DNA of 64,000 nucleotides from an uncultured Candidatus Saccharibacteria bacterium (GCA_964648335.1 CAZYLZ010000003.1:7100-71099), one strand, 5' to 3'. Shown: positions 4,749 through 38,122, numbered from the stretch's first letter. Notes: generated by a model from the letters alone, not told the origin. Program-made: numbers and translations.

Positions 4749-4749
4749 T

Positions 4750-5532
4750 ATGCGAGATGGTACCAAGACACCTAAGCTCGGCCAGCACTTTTTGACCTCG
4801 ACCAAGGCGCTCAGTCAGATAGTCGCAGCAGGGGATATCGCAGCGACAGACACCGTGCTCGAGATAGGACCCGGTAAAGGTGTTTTGACCGCAGAACTCC
4901 TTGCAAAAGCTGGAAAAGTCGTCGCACTCGAGAAAGATCCCGAGCTCGTGACCTATCTACGCGATCGGTTTGCGAAAGAAATCTCGGATGGAAAACTTGA
5001 ACTAGTAGAAGGAGATGCACTCGAATACGATCCATCGAGCCTCGACACCTACAAACTCATAGCCAACATTCCGTACTACATAACGGGAGCTATAATCCGT
5101 AAATTTTTGACCGAATCTGCGCAACCAGAGCGTATGGTCCTTTTGGTACAGAAAGAAATCGCCGAGCGGATAGCGCGGAGCGAAAAGGAGAGCATCCTCT
5201 CGATCTCAGTCAAAGCATATGGGACGCCGCGGTATGTCGACACCGTAAAGGCCGGCGCTTTCAGTCCACCGCCCAAGGTGGATTCGGCCATATTGGTAAT
5301 CGATAGTATTTCGAAACGATTGTTTAAGGACGTGACGGAGGACTGGTTCTTTACCGTTGTAAAAGCCGGCTTTGCGGCAAAACGCAAGCAGTTGCAGGGT
5401 AATCTAGGCACTATTGCGACAAGACAATCCATAACGGATGCGTTCGCTCATATCGGCATCGATAGCTTTTCGCGTGGCGAGGACGTGCATATAGAGACAT
5501 GGGTTGCCCTAGCTGATTCGCTCGCGGAATAA
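4750..5532 (+). CDS. rsmA: 16S rRNA (adenine1518/1519-N6)-dimethyltransferase RsmA/KsgA
   Basis: LGQHFL...VLEIGPGKGVLTAELL SAM motif and NIPYYIT motif typical of KsgA/Dim1. Start chosen at the internal Met just after the uvrD stop. Confidence 0.85.
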   Translation: MRDGTKTPKLGQHFLTSTKALSQIVAAGDIAATDTVLEIGPGKGVLTAELLAKAGKVVALEKDPELVTYLRDRFAKEISDGKLELVEGDALEYDPSSLDTYKLIANIPYYITGAIIRKFLTESAQPERMVLLVQKEIAERIARSEKESILSISVKAYGTPRYVDTVKAGAFSPPPKVDSAILVIDSISKRLFKDVTEDWFFTVVKAGFAAKRKQLQGNLGTIATRQSITDAFAHIGIDSFSRGEDVHIETWVALADSLAE

Positions 5533-5905: not shown

Positions 5906-5947
5906 GCACTCAGTATACCCACGCATTTCTTTGAGACCTAGAGATGC

Positions 5948-6898
5948 GTGGGTACAATGACACATATGCATTGGGTGGGACTCTATCCGTACCGAGCCGC
6001 ACTTGCGGCTATCGTTCTTTTGGTACTCCTAGGCGGAGCCTTGGTAGTAAGCAAGAGCTCGCAGAGCCCACTTTCTACGACCCAGACCACCTGGGGGCAG
6101 GTGGGATCGTTGGTGCAGCAACCCGGGGCAGGAGGCACCCGAACGTCCGACACCGTGACACGACAAGTCTCGGACAGCGATATATACACCAGTCTCACGG
6201 CGGGCAAGACGGGTAAGTACGGCGATGTGTACGCAAACGACATCCCGGTACCGCAAAGCCCGATCATAACCAACACCGGAGACGGCTTCAAAGGAGGGGA
6301 GGTAGAGACCTTTTTAGCATCGGTAAAGCCAAGCGCCGAGGGTATAACGACCAAAAACCAAGACGGAGAGGACCTAAGCCTGTCCGACATCTATTCGTAC
6401 GTACCCTCGAACTCGATCCCGTTCGTAAAACCGACCACCTCTACCCGCACTCCGCTCCAAGACTCACTCTATAACTACGGTAACGATGCCGGCTCGATAG
6501 TCGAGTCGCACGACGAACGCTATCCCAATGTCGCGACCGTCATGGATGCGTTCTTTAAGAACCGCTCGGACCCGACTGCACTAAAGGGCGTCAAAGGGCT
6601 TGCCGCCTCTCTAGCTCAGGCGGGACAAGAGATAGCTGCTCTCGAAACGGTTCCTGCGAACGTCGCATCACTCAACGCCTCGCTAGCCCTCGACTACAAG
6701 GACCTCGCGACGAAGCTGTCCGCCTTGACCGAATCGAAAAGCGACACTGAGCTCGTCGGTGCGATCACGACCTACAACACAAGCGCTGAAGCCTTCGCTA
6801 AGACAAATGTCGGTATCGCGACCTTATTCTCAGCCGCAGGGGTGCATTTCTCATCGACCGAAGCAGGCCGGATGTTCCAGTTCACGCCGATGAACTAG
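5948..6898 (+). CDS. N-terminally membrane-anchored hypothetical protein (316 aa)
   Basis: Single N-terminal hydrophobic helix (AALAAIVLLVLLGGALVV) then a Thr/Ser-rich extracellular region; start may be at the downstream Met (5966). Confidence 0.5.
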   Translation: MGTMTHMHWVGLYPYRAALAAIVLLVLLGGALVVSKSSQSPLSTTQTTWGQVGSLVQQPGAGGTRTSDTVTRQVSDSDIYTSLTAGKTGKYGDVYANDIPVPQSPIITNTGDGFKGGEVETFLASVKPSAEGITTKNQDGEDLSLSDIYSYVPSNSIPFVKPTTSTRTPLQDSLYNYGNDAGSIVESHDERYPNVATVMDAFFKNRSDPTALKGVKGLAASLAQAGQEIAALETVPANVASLNASLALDYKDLATKLSALTESKSDTELVGAITTYNTSAEAFAKTNVGIATLFSAAGVHFSSTEAGRMFQFTPMN

Positions 6899-6977
6899 TC
6901 GCGGGTGCACACGATAAAAAGATAGGGAATGTGCAATAAAATACATCTTTATTGCTTTGACCCTCTGATACAATAAT

Positions 6978-7850
6978 GTGGTGCCGTACGCATCATCTGT
7001 TTCTAATCGACGTTCCATTCTAGCCGCGACATCGGTTGCCATACTATGCATCGTCGCTGGGTGGAGGATCGCCGAAGCGTTTCGTCCCAAAACCGAGCCA
7101 TCGATTGCAAAAATAGATCTCTCGGACCTCGCCGGGCCTGCCGATGAAACCGATACCGATGGCGACTCCGTACCCGACTGGCAAGAATTTCTGATCGGCT
7201 CCAACCCTGCGGTCGCAGACAAAGAAGTAGCGAATGCGCGACTCGCATCATCAACTGAAGTGTCTGCATCTTCAGTCGTCTCCACGCCCGAGACCTCAAA
7301 ACTCGTAGACAAAGTAGTGACGGCGTACACCGGCGCACAGATGACCGCCCAAGCACTCACCCCCGAAGACATCGCAAACCAGATATCCTCCGGCCTCGAG
7401 GCACCCGGCACCTACAAGCCGCACCTTGCATCCGAAATCAAGACTGTCGCCATCAACACTAAAGAGCGCGCTGCCCGGTATCAAGAAGATATGCGCAAAG
7501 CCATGGAGCCGATGCTCACATTTAAGAGCTCCGAGATCGAACTCATCGGCCGGTATGTCGCGCAAAAGGATCCTGCCGCGATGAGCGAGCTCGAGCACAT
7601 CGCCTCGGTCGACGATGCAGTCGCTTCTGCCATGCTCAAGGTCGTCGTCCCAACCGACGCGCTCGACCGTCACCTCGAAGCGATAAATGCGCTCACATAT
7701 TTCTCCGCGACCCTTCATACCATAGTCAAATACTCGAACGATCCGATCGCGTCACTCACGCTCCTGCGCGTCTTTAATGACGCCGAGAAGCGAATGAATG
7801 CGGCGTACGGTCAGCTCGGCGTCTATTACTCTCAGATGCGCGCACTATGA
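6978..7850 (+). CDS. N-terminally membrane-anchored hypothetical protein (290 aa)
   Basis: N-terminal TM (ILAATSVAILCIVAGW); stop overlaps the next gene start (7847); acidic DxDxD patch. Confidence 0.5.
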   Translation: MVPYASSVSNRRSILAATSVAILCIVAGWRIAEAFRPKTEPSIAKIDLSDLAGPADETDTDGDSVPDWQEFLIGSNPAVADKEVANARLASSTEVSASSVVSTPETSKLVDKVVTAYTGAQMTAQALTPEDIANQISSGLEAPGTYKPHLASEIKTVAINTKERAARYQEDMRKAMEPMLTFKSSEIELIGRYVAQKDPAAMSELEHIASVDDAVASAMLKVVVPTDALDRHLEAINALTYFSATLHTIVKYSNDPIASLTLLRVFNDAEKRMNAAYGQLGVYYSQMRAL

Positions 7851-9769
7851 CACTGACCACGCGCATATCGACGCTGTTTTTCATCTTGATGATTGTTGCA
7901 GGCTTTTCATCGGTCGCGGCCGCACAGGTCACGACCGACTGCACCCCGAACGCAGCGGGAGGGCAGACCTGCACATCGGTTGCGGTTGCCGGAAAGCCGA
8001 GCCCGCCCGTAATCCAGGTTTCGGGCGGAACGGGCGGGACAGGTGCGTACACTGTCCGCGGGCAAGCTGTGCCAGGGGCAACTGTCGCAATAAGTACACC
8101 GAGCGGCGCTAAGTGCCCTGACAACACCCAGGCAGATGCTAACGGCGCCTTTACGTGTACCTTAAGCGGTACTCCAGCAAATGGCGAGAGCATCAGCGCG
8201 CAGCAGACGGCACCCGATGGTCAGAGGTCTGACGTCGGCGAGACCCCGAACGCCATCAAGCAGCTCCCTGACACCGAGGCAAACCGTGCGTTCCTTAAGG
8301 ACGGCGTCTTCGGTTGTGGCACGGGTGCTTACGCCATGAACGTAGGCACGATGAACGCGATAGGTGGCGTGTACGTACCAGTCAACGATGCTGCAGTAAC
8401 CCAGAACACTGGGTATCTGGTGTATAAGTTCTGTATCCTCGATGGAGTAGTTGTGCGCGAACGCGAAGCGGCGACCTCGGCGTTCGTCAAAGCGGCGCTC
8501 GACAAGATAACCGGAAAGGGAGGGACTCCTGCATATGTGCTCAATATCCAGGAATATATTCGCGAGAAGCAGGACAAGACCATGGTCGAGTTTACCAAGA
8601 ACTACAATTTCAATGCGGCATGCACCCCATACCGCGACCCGGTCAAACGAGCCATCGTGCAGCAGTATCTTCAAACGCGCAACAAAAAGAACGCGAGTTT
8701 TACCTGCACCCTACCGAACGGAACCGCGTCAGCAGGGGTCGGCGCGCTTTGGCAGATTGCGCAGAACCCGGGAGGAAACACTCCACTCGGTGCCTACATG
8801 GCGGCCCAGATCCAAGCCGAAGAGGCCCTGTCCGAAACCGAGGATGATGTGCGCGATGAAGTGCAGCGCAACAACGGCTTCAAAGATGTGGTGAGGGATG
8901 ATACGTCACCGACCGAGACAGGGGAGCAGCGCGTGATCCCGCGTGTCCTGACGCCCGGCTCGGTCATCAAGGCCATAACGGATCAGATGGTCACATCTGG
9001 TTATCGTCAGCTCGAAAATGCAAGCGCCGTCGACCAGATTATCAATGCGCTCTTCAGCGGACTTTCGACACAAATCCTCACCGACGCCGGCGGCCTCGCT
9101 GGTATCTCGCAGCAACAAGGAGCGACGCCCTCGTACCTAAACCAGGCATCGCAAAATGCAGTATCGGGACTGCGTACGACCGTCACAAACAATGCACTTA
9201 CTATCGTATTCAACGCCCTTGCGGTCGAAGGTCAGTATCATAAAGCGCAAGAGACAATCGGGCAGGCGGTCCTCGATGCGCGCAGCAAGCTCCGTGTTGC
9301 CGAGAACGCATGTTGGAACATGATCATCCCCAAGGTACAGGAGCGTGCTGCACAAGATACGAGCGGGGCCGTGACTTTGGTCATCGCTACATCTACGCAA
9401 TTCTCGGATGCGGTTATCAGGACACAGCTCCAGCCCCTAGCCGACGCTGCACGACAGGGAATAGACAACTCCGATCAGGCGCTCGCCGCCCTTAAAACGC
9501 TTGCAGCGAGCCTCCAGAACACCGCATCACTCTCGGTGCAGAATGTCGCACTTCATCAACTCGACAACCTGCTCGCTAATCACACCGTCCACACACAATT
9601 CGATCTGAAGACGGTGCAGGGGCAGGCCGACACCGTACAGACTGCCATGACCAACCTGGTCACTGACACCGTCAAGTCATGGGGCGACAACCCAGCAAAT
9701 CCGCCCGGTTGGTGCAATGTGAATAAGGTGGAAGTGATCGACTTCTGGCTTGCCCAGTGGAAGAAGTAA
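7847..9769 (+). CDS. secreted hypothetical protein (640 aa), first gene of the T4SS-like block
   Basis: Signal peptide MTLTTRISTLFFILMIVAGFSSVAAAQ; Cys-containing Ig-like N-terminal segment; overlaps the upstream stop. Confidence 0.5.
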   Translation: MTLTTRISTLFFILMIVAGFSSVAAAQVTTDCTPNAAGGQTCTSVAVAGKPSPPVIQVSGGTGGTGAYTVRGQAVPGATVAISTPSGAKCPDNTQADANGAFTCTLSGTPANGESISAQQTAPDGQRSDVGETPNAIKQLPDTEANRAFLKDGVFGCGTGAYAMNVGTMNAIGGVYVPVNDAAVTQNTGYLVYKFCILDGVVVREREAATSAFVKAALDKITGKGGTPAYVLNIQEYIREKQDKTMVEFTKNYNFNAACTPYRDPVKRAIVQQYLQTRNKKNASFTCTLPNGTASAGVGALWQIAQNPGGNTPLGAYMAAQIQAEEALSETEDDVRDEVQRNNGFKDVVRDDTSPTETGEQRVIPRVLTPGSVIKAITDQMVTSGYRQLENASAVDQIINALFSGLSTQILTDAGGLAGISQQQGATPSYLNQASQNAVSGLRTTVTNNALTIVFNALAVEGQYHKAQETIGQAVLDARSKLRVAENACWNMIIPKVQERAAQDTSGAVTLVIATSTQFSDAVIRTQLQPLADAARQGIDNSDQALAALKTLAASLQNTASLSVQNVALHQLDNLLANHTVHTQFDLKTVQGQADTVQTAMTNLVTDTVKSWGDNPANPPGWCNVNKVEVIDFWLAQWKK

Positions 9770-9778
9770 ACTAATGTT

Positions 9779-11998
9779 ATGTTCCGCGCACTCTCATATA
9801 TCTATCGCCACAAAGGGCACATCGCCACCGCACTTGCGACCGCGGCAATCGTAGTGCTTGCTCCGGCATTCCTGCGAATTGATCATGGACACATCGTGCT
9901 CCACCTGAGTGCAGCAGAGGCAGCATGGACGTTCTCGGGCATGATGCGCGAGTTCGTCGCGTGGATCGGCCTTCTCTTCATCTCGTTTGGCGCGCTCGTT
10001 CTTACGATTTCTGGAGCGCTGTTCGATGTCCTCATGGACTGGACCATCATCAATTTTGCGCAGCATTTAGCAGATAATGGCTTGCTATCGAGTATTTCCG
10101 GTGCAAATGATGGAGTCGCAGCGGGACAGGGGTCGATCGAAGTCGTTTGGACAGCCTTCAGGGACATCTCTAACATCGTGATCATCGGAATGTTCATCTT
10201 TGTCGGTATATCGACCATACTCGGTATAGACGAGTTTGGATACAAGAAGTTCATAGCGCGACTCCTTATTGTGGCCATCCTAATCAACTTCAGTCTGTTC
10301 TTCACCAAGATTACAATCGACATCTCGCATGCGCTCGCCGGAACGTTCTACAAGGCGCTTGGTGTACAAATTGAAGGCACGAATACTGGAGGCGGGATAG
10401 CGTCCGGGAGCAACGAGGCGTTTGCGAATTCAGCAGGGAACAACCTCACCGGTGCCAAGGGCATCGCCGGGGCATTCATGACCGCCATGGGCATATCGGG
10501 CACCTACACCGCACAGAAGAATGAGTTGATAAAGATAGGCGAACAAGCAGACAGCACCTTCATGATCCTCTGGGTCGCCATACTGACCACTATCATGCTC
10601 ATCGCGCTTGCGGTGGTGCTCTTTTACGGCTGCTTCCTGCTCGGCACCCGTGGGGTTCTCTTAATATTCCTCCTCCTTTCGTCTTCGTTTGCCTTCGGCT
10701 CGTTCATGATTCCGAAATTTCGCGACCACGACTATGGATGGAAAGGCTGGATCGATACCCTCATACGAAGCGCCTTGTTTGCGCCTTTGTTCCTTCTTTT
10801 CTTGTGGATGGTGCTTTTTGTACTGCGCCAGGTGCCGGCAAGCGCTAAGTCGAACGTGGCAGGGTTTGCGGTCGATGCGACGAATCCGGCTGTATGGACC
10901 TCGACCATCATCTATATACTCTCGCTCGGGCTTTTATATGTTTCGATGAAGGTCGCCAAGAGCTTTTCATCTAATGTCGGAATCATGAGCTCAAGTTTCA
11001 AGTTCGCAGACATGACAGCAGGAGCAGGTAAGTCTGCAGTGATTTTTGCTAGAAACCGGAATCGATTTAACGCAAGCGAGCGCGCACAAGCAACCCTCGC
11101 CAGTGGCACTAAGGACAAGCTCATAGCGCGCGCCAACGCGGGAGGTGTCGGAGGATATGCTGCACAAGTGCAGTTAAACAGGCTCCAGAAGCAGGCGAAA
11201 GGGGAATTCGGTATGGCAAGCGCCGCGATCACCACAAAATTAGATAACTACGCGAAGTCCTGGACGCAGGGTGCAGGCAAAGGAGGTGCTGCCGCGCGCG
11301 CCGCAGAGCATGAGAAACACGAGATTGAAAAGATCGAGAAGGGAATCACCACGGTCGCTCCAAGTAAGGAAGCAGAGAAAAAAGTACTCGAAACCGGAAT
11401 GCAAGAAGCAAAGAGTGCCATCAAAGCCGAATATCAGAAGGCATTGGACGATCACAAAGCCAATAACCAAGCACTGAAAGATAGTGAGGCAGAAGTCGAG
11501 CGTGACGAGAAAGAAATCGAGACAATCACCAAAAAAGTTACGGAAGGTAACGCAAGTGCACAAGATATAGCAAGAAAGAATAACCTTGCCCTCAACGTTA
11601 AGGCAGTTGCCTCAAAGATCGCCATAACGAAAGCTGCGATCAACGCAGATAGAGAGAAGGGCATCAAATCATTTAGTGAAGCGATTGACGAGCATGTAGA
11701 AAAAACCATGGACCAAACTCATGGCAAGGTGATACAAGACTCACTCAAGAGAGCGAAGTCAAAAATTGAAGATATGAAAAATGAGAATCGTGACCTGTAT
11801 CTGACCCGCACAGTATCGAATCCTGTTAGACGCGACCAGATGCGTAGTGCCCTGAAGAGCAGTGCCGATGATAAGAAACTCAAGGCCGCCGCAAAGGCAT
11901 TTGCAAAACTGAGCGGTGCGGCAGAACCAGCTCCGCAAGCAGCACCATCCGCACCAGCACCTGGAACCCCGGCAGCAAATCCGCCCACCACTCCTTAA
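9779..11998 (+). CDS. VirB6/TrbL-like polytopic membrane protein with coiled-coil and Pro/Ala-rich tail
   Basis: At least 7 predicted TM helices in the first 400 aa; Lys/Glu-rich coiled coil and C-terminal PAPQAAPSAPAPGTPAANPPTTP. Architecture resembles large VirB6/TrbL proteins; sits next to a VirB4 ATPase. Confidence 0.5.
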   Translation: MFRALSYIYRHKGHIATALATAAIVVLAPAFLRIDHGHIVLHLSAAEAAWTFSGMMREFVAWIGLLFISFGALVLTISGALFDVLMDWTIINFAQHLADNGLLSSISGANDGVAAGQGSIEVVWTAFRDISNIVIIGMFIFVGISTILGIDEFGYKKFIARLLIVAILINFSLFFTKITIDISHALAGTFYKALGVQIEGTNTGGGIASGSNEAFANSAGNNLTGAKGIAGAFMTAMGISGTYTAQKNELIKIGEQADSTFMILWVAILTTIMLIALAVVLFYGCFLLGTRGVLLIFLLLSSSFAFGSFMIPKFRDHDYGWKGWIDTLIRSALFAPLFLLFLWMVLFVLRQVPASAKSNVAGFAVDATNPAVWTSTIIYILSLGLLYVSMKVAKSFSSNVGIMSSSFKFADMTAGAGKSAVIFARNRNRFNASERAQATLASGTKDKLIARANAGGVGGYAAQVQLNRLQKQAKGEFGMASAAITTKLDNYAKSWTQGAGKGGAAARAAEHEKHEIEKIEKGITTVAPSKEAEKKVLETGMQEAKSAIKAEYQKALDDHKANNQALKDSEAEVERDEKEIETITKKVTEGNASAQDIARKNNLALNVKAVASKIAITKAAINADREKGIKSFSEAIDEHVEKTMDQTHGKVIQDSLKRAKSKIEDMKNENRDLYLTRTVSNPVRRDQMRSALKSSADDKKLKAAAKAFAKLSGAAEPAPQAAPSAPAPGTPAANPPTTP

Positions 11999-12014
11999 TA
12001 ATCATCACTAATGT

Positions 12015-12626
12015 ATGTCTCAGACCGAATTTGATCAGATGGTAGCCACCGAGTTCCAGAAACTCCCCAAGGTGGTGCAAGAAGCCATCAGTGCTGCCGA
12101 TGTTCAAAAACACCTGCGTGCACTTTCGCAGAAGCACCAACTGCACCTGGACCAATGGAGCGCGCTTGAAAACGAGGTGATGATGATCGTGATAGGGATG
12201 GACCCCACTGATGCGCTCGAGGCGAACATCATAAAAGAAGTAGGACTGGCGCCCGATGTGGCCCGAAACGTCGCAAACGATATCAACACCGAAGTATTCG
12301 AGCCTATCCGCAAAAAACTGGAATCGACAGTGGCGGAAAACGCGCCTGCACCCCTTGTCGAAGAAGCGGACCCTACACAGCTCGCGTCCGAGCGCGCGCC
12401 AGAAGTCACGGTACCGAAAGTTGTCGAGCCTCCACCACCCAAGGCGACACCGACGGAAGTGACACTCTCACACCTTAAGAGCTCGCCTGATGTCGGTATC
12501 GCCCATGAAGCGCCCGCCGCTTCCACCGAACCTAAGGCAAAGAGGGGATCGCTCGACGCCGGAACCGCACCAGTGCACGCGACGATGCCACGGCAGAGCG
12601 ACCCATACCGCGAGCCGCTCGCATAA
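12015..12626 (+). CDS. hypothetical protein, Pro-rich C-terminal half
   Basis: ORF with consistent orientation and spacing in the cluster; no known motif. Confidence 0.4.
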   Translation: MSQTEFDQMVATEFQKLPKVVQEAISAADVQKHLRALSQKHQLHLDQWSALENEVMMIVIGMDPTDALEANIIKEVGLAPDVARNVANDINTEVFEPIRKKLESTVAENAPAPLVEEADPTQLASERAPEVTVPKVVEPPPPKATPTEVTLSHLKSSPDVGIAHEAPAASTEPKAKRGSLDAGTAPVHATMPRQSDPYREPLA

Positions 12627-12686
12627 CGATTGCTTTGTTCCCACACAAACGCCGTTTGTGCGTGGTTTGATTGCTATACTGTATTC

Positions 12687-13178
12687 ATGCAATTTCAGGT
12701 ACCTCAGTTCATCGAGGTCGAAGACAAAATCTTCGGGCCTTTTACCTTGAAACAGTTCATATTCATCATCGGCGGAGCAGGGCTCTCGTTTGTCCTGTGG
12801 AAGCAGCTGCCGTCATTTGCATCTTTGCCGCTCGTCATAATGGTACTGAGCGCAAGCGGCGCCCTGGCCTTCATGAAATACAACGACCGACCGTTCATTA
12901 TGGGTGTCGAGAACGCCTTTTATTTCTTTTTTCGCGAAAAGCTCTATCTTTGGAACTCTGACAAGAAGAAAAAGAGCAAAAAGGCCGTAGAAGCGGCGAT
13001 AGCCCAGGAGCAGGTCCGCATACCAACGCTGTCTGACAGCAAGCTCCATGACCTCGCGTGGAGTCTCGATATCAAAGAGAAAGTCGACCAGGCACATAAC
13101 CGCGAATCGACCTTGGTAAGCCGCGGCCTGGGCGGAATATCCGGACTTACCAGCGCTCGGGACGCTCGAATACGCTAA
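12687..13178 (+). CDS. small two-TM membrane protein, VirB3/PrgI-like candidate
   Basis: MQFQVPQFIEVEDKIFGPFTLKQFIFIIGGAGLSFVLW... plus a second helix LVIMVLSASGALAF; size and topology like VirB3/PrgI; located upstream of the VirB4-like ATPase. Confidence 0.45.
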   Translation: MQFQVPQFIEVEDKIFGPFTLKQFIFIIGGAGLSFVLWKQLPSFASLPLVIMVLSASGALAFMKYNDRPFIMGVENAFYFFFREKLYLWNSDKKKKSKKAVEAAIAQEQVRIPTLSDSKLHDLAWSLDIKEKVDQAHNRESTLVSRGLGGISGLTSARDARIR

Positions 13179-13180
13179 TT

Positions 13181-13846
13181 ATGGTCTCTCAAAAAGGAAA
13201 AGCATCGCAGGATTTCGTGCCCGTCCAGGAGGTGCGCGATGGCGTCGTGGTGCTCAAAGACGGGGGATTGCGAGTTATCCTCATGGCATCATCGCTCAAC
13301 TTTGCACTCAAATCCGAGGACGAGCAGACGGCGTTCATCATGCAGTTTCAGAACTTTCTTAACTCACTCGATTTCTCGTGCCAGATCTTCATTCAATCGC
13401 GTCAGCTCGATATCAGGCCCTATATAGCCTCGCTCGAGGTCGAGTACAAGCGTCAGCTCGACGACCTCATGCGCATCCAGATACGCGAATACATCGAGTT
13501 CGTAAAGAGCTTCACCGAGGCTGCAAGCATCATGACCAAGAACTTCTTCGTGATTGTCCCGTACAGCCCCGCCTTGGTCGGCCCTAATTCGGGCAATAGC
13601 GCATTCCCGGCGATGCCCTGGTCAAAAGCGAAGACCGATGCTGCCGAGGTAAACCACACTTTCGAAGAGAATGTGTCGCAGATGGAGCAACGTGTCTCGG
13701 TAGTGCAGCAGGGTCTCATTCGCAGCGGCGTGCGCACTGTGCAGTTAGGCAGCGAGGAGGCAATCGAGCTCTTGTACCGCATGTTCAACCCAGGAGAACA
13801 AGACAAGCCCGTTCATATCCTTGAACAAGAAGCAGGAACCCAATGA
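13181..13846 (+). CDS. hypothetical protein, T4SS-associated (possibly VirB4 N-terminal-like)
   Basis: Immediately precedes the VirB4-like gene in a different frame; N-terminal FVPVQEVRDGVVVLKDGGL... loosely resembles VirB4/TraC N-terminal regions. Confidence 0.4.
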   Translation: MVSQKGKASQDFVPVQEVRDGVVVLKDGGLRVILMASSLNFALKSEDEQTAFIMQFQNFLNSLDFSCQIFIQSRQLDIRPYIASLEVEYKRQLDDLMRIQIREYIEFVKSFTEAASIMTKNFFVIVPYSPALVGPNSGNSAFPAMPWSKAKTDAAEVNHTFEENVSQMEQRVSVVQQGLIRSGVRTVQLGSEEAIELLYRMFNPGEQDKPVHILEQEAGTQ

Positions 13847-13869
13847 CGAACGGGTGATAGAATGTTCCC

Positions 13870-15789
13870 ATGTCTCTTCTCGATATGTTGGGCAAGAAGA
13901 AGGAGCAAGAAGCTGCGGCGCAGGTGATGCCGGTCTTGCCCGACGAGATTTACGAACGCGGCGTGCTCGAGCTGCAGGACGTGATAGCTCCATCAGCGCT
14001 CAAGATCTCATCTCGCGAGCTTAATTTAGGAGAAAAGATAGCACGCACGTTCTTTGTTATCTCATACCCACGCTTCCTTACGACCGGCTGGTTCTCGCCG
14101 ATCATCAACCTCGACAAGGTGCTCGACATCTCGATTTTTGTTCACCCAATGGATACAAATACCGTCTTGCGTAAATTCCAGAAGAAAGTCGCCGAGGTCC
14201 AGAGCCAGATAACTATTCGCGAAGAGAAGGGGATGGTGCGTGATCCGATGCTCGACACCGCGTACGCAGACCTCGAGCAGTTGCGCGACTCGCTTCAACA
14301 GGCGCAAGAGAAGCTCTTCGAGGTGGGTCTCTATATGACCATCTATGGCACGAGCCGCGAAGACGTCGACAAGGCCGAGTCCGAGATCCGCTCGATCCTC
14401 GAGTCGCGCCTCGTGTATGTGCGACCAGCCCTTTTCCAGCAAGAACAAGGCTTCAGATCGGTGTTGCCTATAGCCAAAGACGAACTCAATGTACACACCA
14501 AACTCAATTCATCCCCGCTTTCCTCGATATTCCCGTTCATTTCGTTCGACCTTACGTCGGACAAAGGCATCCTCTACGGCATCAACAGGCATAACTCGTC
14601 CCTTATATTGTTCGACCGTTTTTCCCTCGAAAACTACAATTCAGTCACCTTTGCGAAGTCGGGATCCGGAAAGTCATATACCACCAAGCTCGAGATCTTG
14701 CGCAGTCTCATGTTCGACACCGAGGTCATCGTCATCGACCCTGAGCGCGAATATGAGTATCTTGCCGAGACCGTCGGCGGTCGGTATTTCAACATATCAC
14801 TCTCTTCCGAGCACCATATAAACCCGTTCGATTTGGCTCCGCCGCGCGAGGATGAAGCCGCAGCCGACGTTTTGCGCAACAATATCATCACCCTGGTCGG
14901 CTTGTTCCGGATCATGCTCGGCGGTCTCACCCCCGAGGAAGATGCGATCATTGACCGAGCCATCACCGAAACATATGCGCTCAAGGACATCACACAAGAC
15001 GCCGACTTTACCTCAATCGAGCCGCCGCTTCTCTCTGACTTCGAACTGGTGCTCTCTGGCATGGAAGGGTCCGACAGCTTAGTACAGCGTCTCTCTAAGT
15101 ACACCAAGGGAACATGGTCGGGCTTCATGAACAAGCCAACGAACGTCGACATGAACAAGAAACTCATCGTATTCTCAGTGCGCGACATGGAAGACGATCT
15201 CAAGCCGGTCGCTATGTACATAATCACGCACCACATATGGAATATGGTGCGCAAAGAACTGCGCAAGCGCCTTCTCGTGATCGACGAGGCCTGGTGGATG
15301 ATGCGCAGCCAAGACACCGCGTCGTTCTTGTTTGGCATCGCCAAGCGCGGTCGTAAGTACTACCTCGGGATATCGACCATAACCCAGGACGTCTCGGACT
15401 TCTTGAACTCGCCTTATGGCATACCGATGATCACCAACTCATCGATCCAGCTTTTGTTGCGCCAATCGCCGACGTCGGTGGACCTTGTGCAGCAGACATT
15501 CAAGCTCTCCGACGAAGAGAAATACCTGCTTCTCGAGTCAGATGTAGGGGAGGGAATCTTCTTCGCAGGACTCAAGCACGTCGCCATCAAGATCATCGCA
15601 AGTTACACAGAAGATCAGATCATCACCTCGGACCCGTCCCAGATACTCGCCATCAAAAAGGCTAAACAAGCACAGTCTGCTGACGCTGACATCGACAATC
15701 CACTTCCTCCACCCACAACAACCGCATCAGCACCTCGATTTGCAACACAAGAAGGAGCGGCACTACAGGGAAGCCAGGTACCCAATTAG
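13870..15789 (+). CDS. VirB4/TraC/TrbE-family type IV secretion ATPase
   Basis: Walker A FAKSGSGKSYTTK, Walker B with the family-specific RLLVIDEAWWMM (DEAW) motif, and GISTITQ motif. Confidence 0.8.
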   Translation: MSLLDMLGKKKEQEAAAQVMPVLPDEIYERGVLELQDVIAPSALKISSRELNLGEKIARTFFVISYPRFLTTGWFSPIINLDKVLDISIFVHPMDTNTVLRKFQKKVAEVQSQITIREEKGMVRDPMLDTAYADLEQLRDSLQQAQEKLFEVGLYMTIYGTSREDVDKAESEIRSILESRLVYVRPALFQQEQGFRSVLPIAKDELNVHTKLNSSPLSSIFPFISFDLTSDKGILYGINRHNSSLILFDRFSLENYNSVTFAKSGSGKSYTTKLEILRSLMFDTEVIVIDPEREYEYLAETVGGRYFNISLSSEHHINPFDLAPPREDEAAADVLRNNIITLVGLFRIMLGGLTPEEDAIIDRAITETYALKDITQDADFTSIEPPLLSDFELVLSGMEGSDSLVQRLSKYTKGTWSGFMNKPTNVDMNKKLIVFSVRDMEDDLKPVAMYIITHHIWNMVRKELRKRLLVIDEAWWMMRSQDTASFLFGIAKRGRKYYLGISTITQDVSDFLNSPYGIPMITNSSIQLLLRQSPTSVDLVQQTFKLSDEEKYLLLESDVGEGIFFAGLKHVAIKIIASYTEDQIITSDPSQILAIKKAKQAQSADADIDNPLPPPTTTASAPRFATQEGAALQGSQVPN

Positions 15790-15794
15790 CCTCC

Positions 15795-16844
15795 ATGAAC
15801 CGACTCGCTTTCTCTTTCTTACTCATCTTGTCTGGACTCCTTTCGGTGCCGGTATTCACGTACGCACAATCACTGCTCGACGATGTTGGTTCAACGCTCA
15901 CTATTCAACTGACCCCAGAAAACGTCGCTCCGGGCCAAGTGATTACAGTCGAACTATCGAATTTCAGCCGTGACTTCAGTCTCGCCACAGTGGCATGGTC
16001 GGTTGATGGAAAAATTGTCGCAAGCGGTTTAGGACTAACCACTACCACTGTGCAGGCCGGATCTCTCGGTTCCCAGAAAAGAGTTGCGGTTGCTGCCCAG
16101 TTTCCCGACGGGTCGATACTTAGCGGCTCTACGACATTGACACCTTCGGTCGTAAGTCTGGTATGGGAAGCGGAGACGTACACACCCCCATGGTACCGTG
16201 GAAAAGCCCTCGCCTCGCCCGGGTCGGTAGTCCGCGCATCGGCCGAAGCATGGTTTATCCGCAAGGACGGATCTCGGATCTCGAACGACCAGATACTATT
16301 CAGCTGGAAACGCAACGGGATTCTTCTCACAACATTGTCCGGAGTAGGAAAGAGCACCTTAACAATGCCGGCCCCCCAGCTACACGCCGATGACAGTCTC
16401 TCAGTCACTGCCTCGAGCCGGGACGGATCATTCGAGGGTAATTCGATAGTCGTCATCCCATCTGCTTCCGTACAACCCGTCTTATACCCGACATCGCCAA
16501 CCGGCGGTGTCTCGTACATTTCAGCACTCGGTGAATCGGTTACGGTCATCGACAGCGAAACGACGGTCGTCGCTGAACTATATTTTGCAAGCATACGTAA
16601 CCGCAATGACGCGCAGATGCAATACCAATGGTCGGTCAACGGCGAGGTGTCACGACCGGAATCAGAAGCATCTAAACTCACGATCGCGCTTGCCAACACC
16701 GGTGCCGTCACAGCGAAAATCACTCTTGCCGTCAATCATGCTGCCAATATCTTACAAGCGGCTACTCGTACTTGGATACTCAATCTCGACTCGCGCGGGA
16801 TTCCATCGACAGCAGCCGATCCGTTCACCTCATCAGTGCTATGA
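15795..16844 (+). CDS. secreted hypothetical protein (349 aa)
   Basis: Signal peptide MNRLAFSFLLILSGLLSVPVFTYAQ; β-rich composition; stop overlaps the next start (ATGA). Confidence 0.5.
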   Translation: MNRLAFSFLLILSGLLSVPVFTYAQSLLDDVGSTLTIQLTPENVAPGQVITVELSNFSRDFSLATVAWSVDGKIVASGLGLTTTTVQAGSLGSQKRVAVAAQFPDGSILSGSTTLTPSVVSLVWEAETYTPPWYRGKALASPGSVVRASAEAWFIRKDGSRISNDQILFSWKRNGILLTTLSGVGKSTLTMPAPQLHADDSLSVTASSRDGSFEGNSIVVIPSASVQPVLYPTSPTGGVSYISALGESVTVIDSETTVVAELYFASIRNRNDAQMQYQWSVNGEVSRPESEASKLTIALANTGAVTAKITLAVNHAANILQAATRTWILNLDSRGIPSTAADPFTSSVL

Positions 16845-18070
16845 ATAAGAACTCGCGTTCGTTTGGATGGACAGGGTTCGTCATCGGACTCGTGGTCATC
16901 ATAGCGTTAGCACTCTTTGCTTGGTATCTCTACCTACACAATGCCCAAAATCGCCTCGATACTGTCTCGAGCGGCCGCGGTTTTGGACAGAATACAGAGG
17001 TCTTTGGAACTCCCATCGGCGCTCTCTCGGTCGTCGGGGTTGAGCGTGGCAAAGGAATCGTCGCGACAGCGACATTACCAGCATTCGCTCAGGCGAGCGC
17101 GGCGCCCAGTAGCGCACCATATTATTCTGGATCGAGCACGATAGCGCGATTCGCCGACATCCAGAATGGAAACATCTACGATGTCGATCTTTCTAATGGC
17201 AGCATCACGCGCGTCACGAACACTCTCATCGCCAAGGTAGGGGAGGTGGTGTGGATCGACTCATCACGAGTCCTTTTGCGTGCCGTCGATGACGCAGGAC
17301 ACATCACAACACTCAATGCCTCAATCTCGGGTAGCACTACGCCAAAAATTCTCACCGGGACGTATCTCGAGGAGGATATTGCGTCTTTGGCAGCATCACC
17401 TGACGGGACGATGCTCGCACGATTGGTGCCTACCTCAAAAGGGGTCGATCTTATTCGATCGAAACCTGATGGATCTGCGGCAAAACGCCTATGGTCAAGC
17501 GGGGTACGCGGATGGACCTTGTCTTGGATAAAACCGCGCACTATCTTTGCCACAAGCCGCGCAAGCGCAGGGGTCAGCGGCTCCTTGTATGGAATCAATG
17601 CAGACACCGGGGACAGTACGGCCTATATCGTCGATGTGCCAGGCCTCACTGCGCGCATGAGCCCAAAGAACGCAAATCTCGTTTATAGCGCTTCATATAG
17701 TGACCGAACAGTGCTCTTTTACCGTGCTGCGAGCTCAACAGACGCGGTACGTCTTCCACTTAAAACACTCGCCGAGAAATGTGTATGGAGCACTACGGAA
17801 GCAGACATTCTTTACTGCGCCGTACCTCGATCGATACCTGCCAATGTTGTGTACCCCGATGATTGGTACCGCGGCGAATTTCACACGAGCGATGACTGGT
17901 TTATAATCCATCTCGCAGACAATACTGTTGTACCGCTTTCGGGTACCGAATTCGACACAATAGGCGATGTCGATGTAAGTAACCCGACCATCGACCATTC
18001 AGGAAAGCATATCGTCTTCATCGACGCAAAGACCAACAACCCATTCATCATAACCATCGCAAAGCAATGA
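16841..18070 (+). CDS. membrane-anchored protein with a TolB/PD40-like β-propeller region
   Basis: N-terminal TM (GFVIGLVVIIALALFAWYLYL); repeated SPDG.../DG.. blades (ASPDGTMLARL, KPDGSAAKRL); start from the internal Met overlapping the upstream stop. Confidence 0.45.
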   Translation: MNKNSRSFGWTGFVIGLVVIIALALFAWYLYLHNAQNRLDTVSSGRGFGQNTEVFGTPIGALSVVGVERGKGIVATATLPAFAQASAAPSSAPYYSGSSTIARFADIQNGNIYDVDLSNGSITRVTNTLIAKVGEVVWIDSSRVLLRAVDDAGHITTLNASISGSTTPKILTGTYLEEDIASLAASPDGTMLARLVPTSKGVDLIRSKPDGSAAKRLWSSGVRGWTLSWIKPRTIFATSRASAGVSGSLYGINADTGDSTAYIVDVPGLTARMSPKNANLVYSASYSDRTVLFYRAASSTDAVRLPLKTLAEKCVWSTTEADILYCAVPRSIPANVVYPDDWYRGEFHTSDDWFIIHLADNTVVPLSGTEFDTIGDVDVSNPTIDHSGKHIVFIDAKTNNPFIITIAKQ

Positions 18071-18573
18071 AACAAAATCCGCTCATAGAACGAATGAAGG
18101 GTGCCCGGCTCGCATATCCCACGTTCCTGGTGAGTGATTTTCAGAACGCAAACCTGTTTAAAAACATGACGGCGGCCAACGACCTTTCAGGTTTTATAAA
18201 CGGCATTTTCAAGATAGCTATCGTTGTTGGCGCAATGCTCGCGGTATTGCGCCTGGTTTACGCAGGATTCCTCTATATGGGGACCGATATTTTCGATAAG
18301 AAAGGGGCAGCGAAAGAGGCCATCCAGAATGCACTGATCGGCCTTCTCCTTCTCGTCACGACATACATCTTACTCAACCAGATAAATCCCGACATCCTCA
18401 ACCTTAATATCACCCAGAACCTAAAGGCTCCCTCCACAGCAAACGACCCTTCGACACCCCAAAGCGCGGGTACCGCCTCATCTGCGGCGACCTACCAAGC
18501 ACCGAACATCATCACTGATCCAATAAGTGGTGAATCAAAATATTGCTCGCTGGACACTGGAATCTGTCAATAG
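18067..18573 (+). CDS. small membrane protein, VirB2/TrbC-like pilin candidate
   Basis: Two hydrophobic helices (IFKIAIVVGAMLAVLRLVYAGFL; LIGLLLLVTTYILL) separated by a short loop, about 168 aa; last gene of the block. Confidence 0.4.
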   Translation: MKQNPLIERMKGARLAYPTFLVSDFQNANLFKNMTAANDLSGFINGIFKIAIVVGAMLAVLRLVYAGFLYMGTDIFDKKGAAKEAIQNALIGLLLLVTTYILLNQINPDILNLNITQNLKAPSTANDPSTPQSAGTASSAATYQAPNIITDPISGESKYCSLDTGICQ

Positions 18574-18579
18574 CCCGGA

Positions 18580-19032
18580 CTACGCAGCTTTGTACTTGAT
18601 GACGACGCGACGATTCTTTCCTTCGCCTTGTGACTCCGTTTTGAGATCCTGCATTTCACCGAGCGTCGCATGTACGATGAGTCTCTCGTAGGCACTCATT
18701 GGGGGGAGCTCTACATCGTACTGAAAAGACCGAGCTCGTTCAGCCATCATCTTTGCACGTGTTTGGATCTCTTGGATTTGTTCTTTACGGAAACCGTTTA
18801 CGTCCACTGTGTAGTGCTCACTCTCGATACCACGATGCTCCGCTATCTTCTTTATTATCAGCTCGAAGGCGCGCAATGTCTCACCACGAGGTCCGATGAG
18901 AGCTCGCGGGTCGGGAACAAGGATAGAAAACAAGGTTTGCCCGGCCATAGTCTCGACAACCACAGAATCTGGCGTAACTCCTAGGGTGACCAACAGTTCT
19001 GTTATGACGGTTTGTATCAGTGTTGTATCCAT
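18580..19032 (-). CDS. jag: Jag/KhpB RNA-binding protein (KH + R3H domains)
   Basis: Conserved Jag block LIGPRGETLRAFELII and C-terminal R3H-like motif; sits immediately downstream of yidC as in most bacteria. Confidence 0.8.
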   Translation of the reverse strand: MDTTLIQTVITELLVTLGVTPDSVVVETMAGQTLFSILVPDPRALIGPRGETLRAFELIIKKIAEHRGIESEHYTVDVNGFRKEQIQEIQTRAKMMAERARSFQYDVELPPMSAYERLIVHATLGEMQDLKTESQGEGKNRRVVIKYKAA

Positions 19033-19035
19033 ATA

Positions 19036-19776
19036 TTATGCTTGTGTTTCGTGATTCTCGCGGCGTACCAGGTATTCCTGCACTAAAGAGAATAGGTTAC
19101 TCACCGTTAGGTAGAGAGCGACGCCTGCGCTCGCTTTGTATGCGATAAATCCCACTATAAGTGGAAGGACGTATCGCATTTGGAGGCTCATACTGCGGGC
19201 GAAATCGTCCTGAAAGGATGGTGGAGCGTCTTTCTTTGGTGGTGTTGCAGCCGGTGTTGCAAGCCATGCGTACGCCATTTGGGATGCCGCAGCTGTTATC
19301 GCCAGTATAATGCTTGGAACCGCGAGATTCACAAGGCCGATAAACAACATATTGACCTCTCCAGGAACCGGCACGAATGAATACAGGAGTGTCGGATCGA
19401 TTACGGGGAGGTGTCCTTTAAAAAAGACCCAGTAGAGACCTATGATGATCGGTAATTGAACCAGAATAGGGACAAGACCCGAAAGAGGGTGGATATTGTG
19501 CTCTTTATAGAGCTCGAGCATCTTTTTTGCCTGTTCTTCTTTATTTTGGTACTTACGCTTCAGTTCTTCGAGCTTAGGCGCAAGCTTTTTCATCTCGATC
19601 TGGGTGCGTGTCGCTTCGCGAGCGATAGGGAACAGTATGAATTTAACGAGGAGTGTGAGTGCAATCGTCGCAAGTCCCACATCATGGTTTGGTACCACTG
19701 ATATGAGAGTAACCAAACCATTGTAGAGAGGAACGAAAATCGCACTATGGAAAGCGGCAGAAATCATCCTGCGCAT
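19036..19776 (-). CDS. yidC: membrane protein insertase YidC/Oxa1 (short form)
   Basis: YidC signature: TM1, KFILFPIA, coiled loop (LAPKLEELKRKYQNKEEQAKKMLELYKEHNIHPLSG), C-terminal TMs; classic rnpA-yidC synteny. Confidence 0.85.
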   Translation of the reverse strand: MRRMISAAFHSAIFVPLYNGLVTLISVVPNHDVGLATIALTLLVKFILFPIAREATRTQIEMKKLAPKLEELKRKYQNKEEQAKKMLELYKEHNIHPLSGLVPILVQLPIIIGLYWVFFKGHLPVIDPTLLYSFVPVPGEVNMLFIGLVNLAVPSIILAITAAASQMAYAWLATPAATPPKKDAPPSFQDDFARSMSLQMRYVLPLIVGFIAYKASAGVALYLTVSNLFSLVQEYLVRRENHETQA

Positions 19777-19809: not shown

Positions 19810-20136
19810 TTAGGCTATCGCAGAGAACATCCGTGTCATCTCGGCCTTAATATCACTAAAAGGGGCAGTAAAAACTGTCTTGTTAAGCGAAATAACCCCA
19901 ATAATAGGGGAGGTAAGGGTAGGACTTGCCTGTGTCAGGGCCTCGCGAACCCGGCGCTTGGCACGATTGCGGTCTACCGAGAGCGGGGCGACCTTTTTTG
20001 ACACAGAAACACTAATATATGACGTATTTCCTTGGTTTTGTACGTATGAGAACGAAAAAAACACCGAGGAAAGGCGTTTTTTGGGCTTGATTGCCACCGA
20101 TTGGAGGAGTGCCGAAGTTGCCCGGCCCAGCTTCAT
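19810..20136 (-). CDS. rnpA: ribonuclease P protein component
   Basis: Basic RnpA motif (VSKKVAPLSVDRNRAKRRVREAL); position between rpmH and yidC. Confidence 0.8.
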   Translation of the reverse strand: MKLGRATSALLQSVAIKPKKRLSSVFFSFSYVQNQGNTSYISVSVSKKVAPLSVDRNRAKRRVREALTQASPTLTSPIIGVISLNKTVFTAPFSDIKAEMTRMFSAIA

Positions 20137-20139
20137 AAC

Positions 20140-20277
20140 CTAAACCTGGGTCAGCTTTGCGCGACCCTTCTGGCGACGGCGCTTGAGAAGCCTGCGACCC
20201 GACGCAGTCTTGTTGCGGTTCATAAAACCGTGTGCACTGCTTCGCTTCTTCTTCTTTGGCTGGTATGTTCTGCTCAT
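20140..20277 (-). CDS. rpmH: 50S ribosomal protein L34
   Basis: Not in the ORF track (45 aa). Manual minus-strand translation gives [45 protein letters not shown], a clear L34. Confidence 0.85.
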
Positions 20278-20464
20278 AAACGCATCATACCTCTAATGGG
20301 ATAAAATTTCAATAGCTTGGCCATTAGTATGGATTCTCTGTCTATTTCGTCGGATAAGGGGTTGTCCTTTGAGTTATACACAGGTTACCCACACCTTTAA
20401 GCTCCATAGGGGTCAATAGGCGATTGAAAGCGATTAGGTATAATGGCTCCACCTTAGGGTGCGT
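20278..20464. promoter_or_regulatory. rpmH/dnaA divergent control region with a perfect TATAAT and a DnaA-box-like site
   Basis: TATAAT at about 20439-20444; TTATACACA (one mismatch to TTATCCACA) at about 20374-20382; intergenic between divergent rpmH and dnaA. Confidence 0.4.
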
Positions 20465-21811: not shown

Positions 21812-22043
21812 AAAAATTTGTGGGTAAGGTGTGGATAAGGTGTGTGTCGGGACTGCCTTTATACACTCCTTGTGTGGACAAAAAGCCAAGTGACGGCATT
21901 ATACACACAGCTATCCTTCTTTTCCGTGAGTTGTTAGTCCGGTAGTCCCCAGTTGAAAAGGTAATAAAACCGAGTAAATAAGCCAAAAAAAGACGTTATC
22001 CACTTATCCCCGCGCTTAATAGTATTAGTAGTAGTATTTATAC
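21812..22043. promoter_or_regulatory. candidate oriC: DnaA-box cluster plus AT-rich unwinding element in the dnaA-dnaN spacer
   Basis: Perfect TGTGGATAA (reverse of TTATCCACA) at 21830-21838; one-mismatch boxes at 21819-21827, 21873-21881, 21996-22004; AT-rich AGTATTAGTAGTAGTATTTATAC just before dnaN. Confidence 0.6.
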
Positions 22044-26570: not shown

Positions 26571-27152
26571 TTATTTAGCGGTGGTGAGTATTTTCAGGTC
26601 GAGTGCCATCCATACATTTGGATCTATATACGACTGTCGCATGATCCATCGCTTAAACGCGGTATCGTGCCACAACAAGATCCTGTCAGATTGATTATCA
26701 AGGACATAGTCTCCTATTGATGTCCGTACAGTGAGTACTGCGTGATTCTCGCCATGAGCGTCTACCACCACAGTCATAAGGAGCGCTCCTGCCGGCCAAC
26801 CACGCCTAATAAGCAGATGTCGCTTTAGGAGCGCGTAATCCTCGCAGTCGCCACGGAGCTCTATTGGGATAGTCCAATACTCCTCGACCTTATACAGCTG
26901 TCGGTCGGTCATCGGCTTGACGTTTTGATTAACCCACCGGTTAACAGTGTCGAGCTCGAGTAAACGCTCCTTCGTTACTACGTACTTAGTGTGTTCGGTC
27001 GATCCTTTCATGCACTGATCTGGTGTCCGTTCACAAAAGTGATGCCAGCCGTACGGGCCCGGAACCACTCCATGCACCCTCATTGAACGAATCTGTGCCT
27101 CGGCCCAAGAAGGGAACGCGAGTAACAAAAATATGAGCGCTGAGCGCGACAT
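26571..27152 (-). CDS. secreted transglutaminase-like cysteine peptidase (BTLCP-like) candidate
   Basis: Signal peptide MSRSALIFLLLAFPSWAEAQ; Cys-His-Asp arrangement (GDCEDYALLK ... DAHGENHAVLTV ... DYVLDN) resembling bacterial transglutaminase-like cysteine proteinases. Confidence 0.45.
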   Translation of the reverse strand: MSRSALIFLLLAFPSWAEAQIRSMRVHGVVPGPYGWHHFCERTPDQCMKGSTEHTKYVVTKERLLELDTVNRWVNQNVKPMTDRQLYKVEEYWTIPIELRGDCEDYALLKRHLLIRRGWPAGALLMTVVVDAHGENHAVLTVRTSIGDYVLDNQSDRILLWHDTAFKRWIMRQSYIDPNVWMALDLKILTTAK

Positions 27153-38119: not shown

Positions 38120-38122
38120 GCC

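Follow-up and report, generated by a model that had tools for sequence, protein, structure and literature searches.

A type IV secretion-like operon beside the probable replication origin of an uncultured, apparently Kaiserbacteria-like bacterium

A 64,000-nt stretch of DNA deposited under the name of an uncultured Candidatus Saccharibacteria bacterium (GCA_964648335.1, CAZYLZ010000003.1:7100-71099), hereafter the window, carries at positions 5948-18573 (all coordinates are counted from the start of the stretch) a block of genes that an initial annotation described as a type IV secretion-like locus next to the replication origin. The block consists of 11 plus-strand open reading frames (ORFs), all co-oriented and intact, and the tight packing that had been pointed out is evident from the spacings, which, from the first gene (g316) to the last (the pilin gene), are 79, -4, 9, 16, 3, 2, 23, 5, -4 and -4 nt. 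Given the short spacings and the shared orientation, the 11 ORFs can be regarded as one operon, bounded at the 5' side by a 415-nt gap after ksgA and stopping 6 nt short of jag, which runs convergently. The predicted products are a VirB4 ATPase, a separately encoded TrsD-like N-terminal domain of VirB4, a PrgI/VirB3-like protein, an extended VirB6-like protein, and a VirB2-like pilin, together with six proteins specific to the lineage. For comparison, we scanned one genome per species, which yielded 573 confirmed relatives of VirB4, and analysed the best 80 loci (L001-L080), referred to below as the related loci.

Components of the operon

VirB4-family ATPases are the only universal marker of type IV secretion systems (T4SSs). 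The operon encodes such an ATPase of 639 aa at 13870-15789 (+), in which the motifs reported by the initial annotation are readily located, namely, Walker A (AKSGSGKS, residues 262-269) and a Walker B of the DEAW type (LLVIDEAW, residues 468-475). The protein scores 366.2 bits, above the cut-off of 325, against the NCBIfam model NF045971 (‘VirB4-like conjugal transfer ATPase, CD1110 family’), with an alignment that spans profile positions 185-733 of 752, and also matches the Pfam family P-loop_TraG (PF19044; 4e-25) and, among solved structures, the Thermoanaerobacter VirB4 domain (4AG5; 4.8e-42) and R388 TrwK (2.5e-7). It covers what would be the C-terminal two-thirds of VirB4 in its canonical monoderm form, and by the marker just mentioned the locus can be assigned to the type IV secretion superfamily. 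The N-terminal domain of VirB4 is encoded as a gene of its own, a 221-aa ORF at 13181-13846 (+) that had been overlooked in the initial annotation and that matches the NCBIfam models VirB4_plasma (3.5e-9, profile positions 101-233) and TrsD/TraD family (1.1e-5) as well as positions 2-113 of the CD1110 VirB4 profile (5.7e-5). A separate TrsD ORF, in most cases of 209-231 aa, is kept in 77 of the related loci, so that the split of VirB4 is not an assembly error.

Together with the TrsD gene, the gene for the PrgI/VirB3-like protein (12630-13178, +) lies directly upstream of virB4. Its assignment, already proposed, holds, with a match to PF12666 at 3.6e-9 and 37.5 bits (gathering score, 27) and the two expected transmembrane (TM) segments at residues 38-56 and 63-81 (TM scan). 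The true start of this gene is likely ATG 12687, which gives a protein of 163 aa, homologues being 136-196 aa long, and the gene was found in 76 of the 80 related loci. The VirB2-like pilin (18067-18573, +), which had been described as a two-helix pilin-like protein, is recognized by the Pfam family T4SS_pilin (PF18895; 7.2e-7, 29.6 bits, gathering score 26.6); its two TM helices span residues 43-61 and 85-103, and the C-terminal extension, rich in Ser, Thr, and Pro, ends in a pair of cysteines. The pilin gene, three genes downstream of virB4, is present here in a single copy and is found in 54 of the related loci.

The largest of the core proteins, the 739-aa g739 (9779-11998, +), had been called VirB6/TrbL-like. 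The described architecture stands, with about 8 hydrophobic helices in residues 14-390 and, after these, some 340 aa of helical tail rich in K, A, and E (TM scan and structural model), but the VirB6 identity comes from fold and gene position, not from direct profile matches. There is no direct match to g739 in Pfam and NCBIfam even at E≤10; a profile of 47 homologues compared with the PDB sequences gave only coiled-coil noise from the tail; and alignment of this profile with hhalign to a single clostridial VirB6, CD1112, was not significant (E 0.46). Three homologues bear precomputed ‘PF19590’ labels, which did not reappear in a search of the current Pfam and were not used. In favour of the call, one member of the family matches Pfam TrbL, with an E of 0.001 that is under the gathering score. 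In contrast to the direct searches with g739, the AlphaFold model built from the 47 homologues, with a predicted local distance difference test score (pLDDT) of 85-95 in the membrane core, retrieves R388 TrwI/VirB6 chains (8rtd_L, 8rt9_F, and 7o3v_F) as the top Foldseek matches in the PDB, with a probability of 0.99, E 0.014, and a TM-score on the target of 0.35-0.41. The position of the gene is that of VirB6 in the Clostridium botulinum plasmid pCDC3875, which shares the core order VirB6-PrgI-x-VirB4, and in Parcubacteria RAAC4_OD1_1, where coding sequences 531, 533, 534, and 535 are given in Table S3 of PMC12102498 as VirB6 (by a match to the virB6 hidden Markov model (HMM) of mating pair formation (MPF) class T), VirB3, TrsD, and VirB4, respectively, that is, in the VirB6-x-VirB3-TrsD-VirB4 order identical to that seen here. 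Thus, on the strength of fold and position, g739 is a probable extended VirB6-like protein.

The remaining six genes encode lineage-specific proteins, five of which contain an N-terminal TM or signal segment (TM scan); several signal-peptide proteins had been noted previously. The exception is the soluble g203. The first operon gene, g316 (5948-6898, +; ATG 5957 and ATG 5966 are possible true starts), encodes a bitopic membrane protein with a single N-terminal TM segment at residues 17-35; it has no match in Pfam or NCBIfam and is syntenic in 17 Kaiserbacteria-like loci. The next gene, g290 (6978-7850, +), encodes another bitopic membrane protein (TM segment at residues 14-32), and the two are paralogous, the families aligning over the C-terminal ~140 aa with an hhalign probability of 97.5% (E 6.9e-12). 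The g290 protein contains a thrombospondin-type-3-like motif, D59-x-D61-x-D63-G64-x-x-D67-W68-x-E70, with invariant D/W/E columns, and a precomputed PF18884 label, which we take to denote a bacterial thrombospondin-type-3 calcium-binding repeat, is attached to most of the 160 members detected in the family. The C-terminal part of g290 is a four-helix bundle in the AlphaFold2 model (pLDDT of 83 overall and 92-98 over residues 150-290), for which Foldseek returned generic four-helix bundles only, with nothing at E≤0.001 and no NTF2/VirB8 or VirB5 match. Because the confidently modelled g290 resembles only such generic bundles, the idea that g290 and g316 could be VirB8 or VirB5 was dropped.

The g640 protein (7847-9769, +), which is apparently secreted or anchored, starts with a hydrophobic signal and contains a Big_6 immunoglobulin (Ig)-type domain at residues 69-129 (Pfam, 1.8e-7) that is exchanged for fn3 or other Ig domains in homologues, and no domain is consistent in the Pfam census; its conserved C-terminal region includes the invariant C287, C489, and C623, and gave no match when its profile was compared with the PDB. 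This gene is syntenic in 43 of the related loci. The gene for g203 (12015-12626, +) is always located between the VirB6 and PrgI genes and is syntenic in 56 related loci. Its product, without TM segments in the TM scan, consists of a conserved N-terminal domain of ~100 aa, a Pro-rich linker, and a C-terminal D-P-Y-x-E motif (invariant D196, P197, Y198, and E200) that could be a docking peptide; profile search against the PDB and searches of Pfam and NCBIfam detected no match. Downstream of virB4, g349 (15795-16844, +; found in 77 of the 80 related loci) encodes a putative secreted protein that has a signal-like segment at its N-terminus and contains three Ig-like repeats, in which a W-x-x-N-G motif recurs (invariant W68, W171, and W279 in the alignment) and for which weak profile matches to T4 Hoc and Ig domains were obtained (E 0.0015). 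The ORF of g432 (16841-18070, +) is open from TTG 16772, and the conserved start is ATG 16841, which overlaps the g349 stop by 4 nt, the family consensus beginning at M24 of the long ORF. This protein had been described as a β-propeller membrane protein; the membrane anchor (TM segment at residues 37-55, in the numbering of the long ORF) is supported, the protein being extracytoplasmic, with invariant C337 and C349, but the propeller was over-called, given that the TolB profile matches at E 0.013 and PD40 is detected in 1 of 30 homologues, with no consistent domain, so that g432, found in 67 related loci, is possibly a TolB-like β-propeller. Neither SLT nor CHAP nor NTF2 domains were detected by Pfam and NCBIfam in any of the 11 operon proteins.

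A scan of the operon region for promoters and terminators gave no more promoter-like sites than shuffled sequence. Two sites are mentioned as leads only, one at 5931-5958 (10/12), overlapping the start of g316, and the strongest sigma-70-like match of the region (11/12) at 17880-17907, a position within g432 that is a short way upstream of the pilin gene.

Conservation and chromosomal setting

All of the best 80 loci among the 573 VirB4 relatives come from metagenome-assembled genomes of Patescibacteria, with 76-89% identity in VirB4. They are labelled Kaiserbacteria (the closest), Nomurabacteria, Taylorbacteria, Adlerbacteria, Campbellbacteria, Zambryskiibacteria, and ‘Paceibacterota’, many bearing generic names or the name ‘uncultured Saccharibacteria’, and judging from these matches, the source organism is a Kaiserbacteria-like member of Paceibacteria. 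Among the plasmid-encoded VirB4 proteins, the best-ranked in the matches listed belong to the CD1110 family of Bacillota and Actinomycetota and are 28-36% identical to the VirB4 analysed here, so that the overall pattern of similarity is consistent with membership in the Patescibacteria clade.

The gene order, traced by tblastn in the 80 related loci, is the same wherever the contig reaches, namely, uvrD-ksgA-g316-g290-g640-VirB6-g203-PrgI-TrsD-VirB4-g349-g432-pilin, then jag-yidC-rnpA, and then dnaA-dnaN-PBP1. The only rearrangement is the placement of the pilin gene before g432, between g349 and g432, in the more distant, Nomurabacteria- and Taylorbacteria-like loci. The possibility, raised by the initial annotation, that the genes flanking virB4 are unrelated housekeeping genes is not borne out: they are syntenic with virB4 across the 80 related genomes.

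The components of this conserved block differ widely in their sequence conservation. In the 54 loci that hold all markers, compared within genomes and picked by VirB4 similarity, the median identity is 79% for VirB4, 59% for TrsD, 55% for DnaA, 48% for PrgI, 44% for YidC, 41% for both DnaN and the pilin, and 26-32% for the surface and accessory proteins. The contrast in rates between VirB4 and the surface and accessory proteins is extreme for genes of one operon. The identity of VirB4 exceeds that of DnaA in 54 of these 54 loci, which, again, had been selected for their similarity in VirB4. The fixed gene order, together with the conservation of VirB4 above that of DnaA, argues for vertical inheritance with strong purifying selection on the motor, and the low identities of the exposed parts point to their rapid divergence.

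Immediately downstream of the operon are genes that belong to its context and not to the machine: jag (18580-19032, -), yidC (19036-19776, -), and rnpA (19810-20136, -), identified with Pfam, and rpmH (20140-20277, -), recognized by its L34 sequence, followed by dnaA (20459-21811, +) and dnaN (22044-23153, +), both identified with Pfam. DnaA boxes with at most one mismatch number 8 in 20374-22004, against a maximum of 2 per 2-kb bin elsewhere, and 5 of the 8 form a cluster (21819-22004) inside the 232-nt dnaA-dnaN spacer; the cumulative GC-skew minimum lies at 18-20 kb of the window. This stretch, from jag through dnaN, is probably the oriC region. The end of the pilin gene is 1.9 kb from dnaA, and, based on the DnaA-box cluster and the GC-skew minimum, the end of the operon is ~2-3.5 kb from the probable origin, or about 3.2 kb when the origin is placed at the DnaA boxes. 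The location beside jag-yidC-rnpA-rpmH/dnaA, singled out as notable in the initial annotation, is thus confirmed, and the proximity of such loci to the origin has been described in the published text of PMC12102498.

Upstream of the operon, Pfam identifies an M23/LysM peptidoglycan peptidase (1402-2415, -), uvrD/pcrA (2754-4748, +), and ksgA (4672-5532, +), and the M23-uvrD-ksgA order recurs in one related locus (L028). The peptidase, which lies outside the operon, 3.5 kb upstream, is the sole nearby candidate for a VirB1-type wall hydrolase; proteins containing M23/LysM are counted among the VirB1 homologues in the text of PMC12102498.

The claim that a VirD4 coupling protein, VirB11, and a relaxase are absent is upheld within the window, where Pfam scans of the large ORFs detected no VirD4/TcpA, VirB11, relaxase, or integrase domains and, instead, gave housekeeping genes, namely, uvrD, ksgA, ruvABC, polA, a murein ligase, PBP1, and tsaE. 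The relaxase and the coupling protein are likewise absent from the corresponding block of the related loci. We considered the T2SSE ATPase at 29385-31079 (-) as a candidate VirB11 and rejected it, this 564-aa protein with an MshEN domain being of the PilB/GspE type that is characteristic of type IV pili or type II secretion systems. The type IV pilus is the second envelope machine, besides the T4SS, with known essentiality in Saccharibacteria. No tRNA gene was found within 20 kb of the locus and no Rfam element near it; the flanking direct repeats are short ones at chance level only; and the GC content of the locus is not distinct from that of its surroundings.

Ancestry and possible function of the system

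According to the survey by Quinonero-Coronel et al. 2025 (PMC12102498), VirB4 is encoded in 2,417 of the 3,035 genomes of Patescibacteria and is monophyletic there, as a clade inside the MPF class FATA (MPF-FATA), with TrsD as the most abundant VirB4-associated component and with PrgI/VirB3, VirB6, and PF18895-type VirB2 pilins encoded near virB4; relaxases are described there as almost absent and homologues of type IV coupling proteins (T4CPs) as mostly distant from virB4, and dnaA, dnaN, rnpA, ksgA, and rpmH as abundant near virB4 in Paceibacteria and Microgenomatia. The operon fits this description, and that of the Southlakia epibionticum system (SEML1_0006-0019; PMC10633639), combining VirB4 and an adjacent TrsD with PrgI/VirB3, a probable VirB6, and a PF18895 pilin, without a relaxase or T4CP near virB4, and residing in the chromosome beside dnaA, dnaN, rnpA, rpmH, and ksgA; the likeness to minimal Gram-positive-type systems of small-genome bacteria suggested by the initial annotation is thus matched in both publications. 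With the clade, the components, the absence of relaxases, and the origin proximity already published in 2025 in the same survey, the operon is an ordinary copy of a known system. It shows no substantial difference: there is one pilin gene, compared with the arrays of 2-11 pilin genes that are common in Saccharimonadia and Microgenomatia, and g316, g290, g640, g203, g349, and g432 have no counterpart among the T4SS components that the text of PMC12102498 discusses.

The resemblance extends in part to better characterized systems. With the monoderm MPF-FATA systems of the CTn2/CD1110 type, the operon shares a CD1110-family VirB4 and a PrgI-family protein, and the TrsD-like N-domain is a separate gene also in pGO1, as stated in the text of PMC12102498; pGO1 and pSK41, with their TrsD-TrsE pair, represent these systems alongside pCDC3875. 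Unlike these monoderm systems, it contains no VirD4 (CD1115), relaxase, or SLT/CHAP hydrolase gene, includes a VirB2-like pilin that they lack, encodes a VirB6-like protein of 739 aa rather than 260 aa, and is chromosomal and immobile. The MPF class T systems of R388 and Agrobacterium have in common with it the two-helix VirB2-like pilin, the VirB3-like protein, VirB4, and the VirB6-like fold (TrwI), but here VirB5, VirB7-VirB10, and VirB11 are missing, the envelope is monoderm, and VirB4 is distant (see the TrwK match above). Helicobacter pylori ComB and the archaeal Ced system are, similarly, T4SS-derived, employ VirB4 without a relaxase or coupling protein, and provide a precedent for import; unlike the operon, however, ComB includes the outer-membrane parts VirB7-VirB10, and CedA, CedA1, and CedA2 have no counterparts here.

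We therefore interpret the locus, with a probability of about 0.85, as the Kaiserbacteria-like, Paceibacteria copy of the Patescibacteria-clade T4SS, that is, a descendant, inherited vertically and located in the chromosome close to the origin, of the conjugation machinery of monoderms (MPF-FATA, CD1110/pGO1-like), without its role in conjugation. The monoderm ancestry is suggested by the CD1110-family plasmid matches and by the core gene order shared with pCDC3875. Descent of the core genes from conjugation machinery would be expected also for an integrative and conjugative element, or a decaying remnant of one, inserted beside the origin, but such an element would have to lack, within the window, a relaxase, T4CP, and integrase and, around the locus, a tRNA target and flanking repeats, to recur at the same chromosomal position across 80 species genomes, and to keep 11 of 11 ORFs intact at an indistinct GC content. 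The conservation of VirB4 above that of DnaA is the opposite of what decay or mobility would produce, and we regard this explanation as very improbable.

Several observations weigh against our interpretation as a T4SS of the Patescibacteria clade. As the alignment indicates, the pilin copy is without a classical signal peptide: most homologues have an N-terminal signal h-region and an ‘AQ’ cleavage-like site before a conserved F-x-P-L motif, which are absent here and, likewise, in relatives L016, L018, L023, and L033. The assignment of g739 as VirB6 fails every direct sequence-HMM test, and no equivalent of VirB8, VirB1, or VirB5 was identified among the operon products, the one accessory protein modelled, g290, being a generic four-helix bundle. 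To our knowledge, essentiality of the T4SS has been established in Saccharimonadia only, and we know of no experiment on any Paceibacteria T4SS and of no pilus observed in organisms of the Paceibacteria type. Finally, T4CP homologues are present elsewhere in most Patescibacteria genomes (PMC12102498), so that their absence from the window has to be read at the scale of the window.

The activity of the machine is harder to pin down than its identity. In the R388 structure, VirB6 is the platform on which the pilus is assembled and VirB4 the associated ATPase, and production of the Agrobacterium T-pilus requires VirB4 and not the coupling protein VirD4. By analogy with these two systems, a TrsD/VirB4 hexamer would dock on PrgI and VirB6 and pull the two-helix pilin out of the membrane, and the pilin, with VirB6 as its platform, would polymerise to give a short pilus or tube touching the host cell; the fast-evolving g316, g290, g640, g349, and g432 might form or decorate the wall-spanning, host-facing part. 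In S. epibionticum, transposon sequencing found the T4SS and the pilin array, in a system lacking recognisable coupling and relaxase proteins, essential for epibiotic growth (Wang et al. 2023, PMC10633639); a T4CP homologue and comEC are dispensable (PMC10633639, PMC12857230), and pilins, VirB3, VirB4, VirB6, and TrsD are named among the essential components in the text of PMC12102498. Because the T4CP is dispensable in that species and these components are essential, VirB4-driven assembly of pilin is the simplest essential activity, and we would give roughly even odds to the assembly of a pilus-like, host-contact structure being the core, strongly selected activity of the system.

The function of these systems has been called unknown, with delivery of effectors, a conduit formed by a pilus, and uptake of nucleotides or DNA among the proposals (a 2025 FEMS review, PMC12857230; a 2024 PNAS perspective, PMC11665869). 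Translocation of effectors, in which the machine would co-opt its host, a bacterium or an archaeon, by injecting proteins in the manner of pathogen T4SSs, is the speculation favoured in the literature (PMC10633639, PMC11665869), fits the contact-dependent lifestyle of bacteria in the candidate phyla radiation (CPR), and could account for the fast evolution of the surface components, suggestive of host-specific interaction; however, the coupling protein, the usual substrate receptor, is missing from both the operon and the window, its homologue is non-essential in S. epibionticum, and the conserved block contains no recognisable genes for candidate effectors. We therefore hold effector export to be possible but, on balance, unlikely. 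Somewhat more doubtful still is a ComB- or Ced-like import machine that would supply these auxotrophic cells, from the host, with DNA, nucleotides, or other building blocks that they are unable to synthesize. Because comEC is dispensable and the T4SS essential in S. epibionticum, the T4SS is a candidate route of nucleotide acquisition (PMC11665869, PMC12857230), and the absence of a relaxase and a T4CP recalls H. pylori ComB; VirB4 also weakly matches the archaeal import ATPases CedB (5e-9) and CedD, but with scores far under the cut-offs (35 bits vs 700), the operon encodes no DNA-binding or nuclease component, and no direct evidence of import has been reported in any patescibacterium. A more specific version of import, which we consider to be a long shot, is that the six accessory genes build a hitherto undescribed wall-spanning, host-facing module replacing VirB8, VirB1, VirB5, and adhesins, and thus make an essential, T4CP-independent import conduit; if true, this would explain the conservation of VirB4 above that of DnaA.

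The T4SS is among the most interesting unsolved machines of the CPR, essential in the one species tested, but the system itself is already catalogued, in about 80% of the Patescibacteria genomes, including the presence of a pilin in monoderm organisms, the lack of a relaxase, and the proximity to the origin. To this, our analysis of the pilus-assembly candidate adds the gene-by-gene anatomy of a Kaiserbacteria-type operon, the synteny of the entire 11-gene block, beyond the VirB homologues, across Paceibacteria, the slower evolution of VirB4 compared to DnaA, and the paralogy of the accessory pair g316/g290, which appears to be of the four-helix-bundle kind rather than VirB8 or VirB5. What remains novel, then, is that six accessory genes are conserved along with the machine in the Paceibacteria and that VirB4 evolves unusually slowly.

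Other features of the window

Far downstream of the operon, a giant ORF of 3,797 aa (50452-61845, +) has a sole Pfam match, to Amidase_2 (N-acetylmuramoyl-L-alanine amidase), at residues 2197-2310 (E 9.6e-9); it could encode a surface or peptidoglycan-attacking protein, possibly one that is directed at the host. Four other large plus-strand ORFs (445, 576, 504, and 927 aa), located within 36782-39853, 41302-42816, and 46640-49423, have no Pfam match at E≤0.001. A transglutaminase-like cysteine protease of the BTLCP family is encoded at 26571-27152 (-). The RuvA domains of the 394-aa ORF at 45219-46403 (-) begin only at residue 204, so that either the N-terminus of this ORF is over-extended or the protein has an N-terminal extension of ~200 aa.

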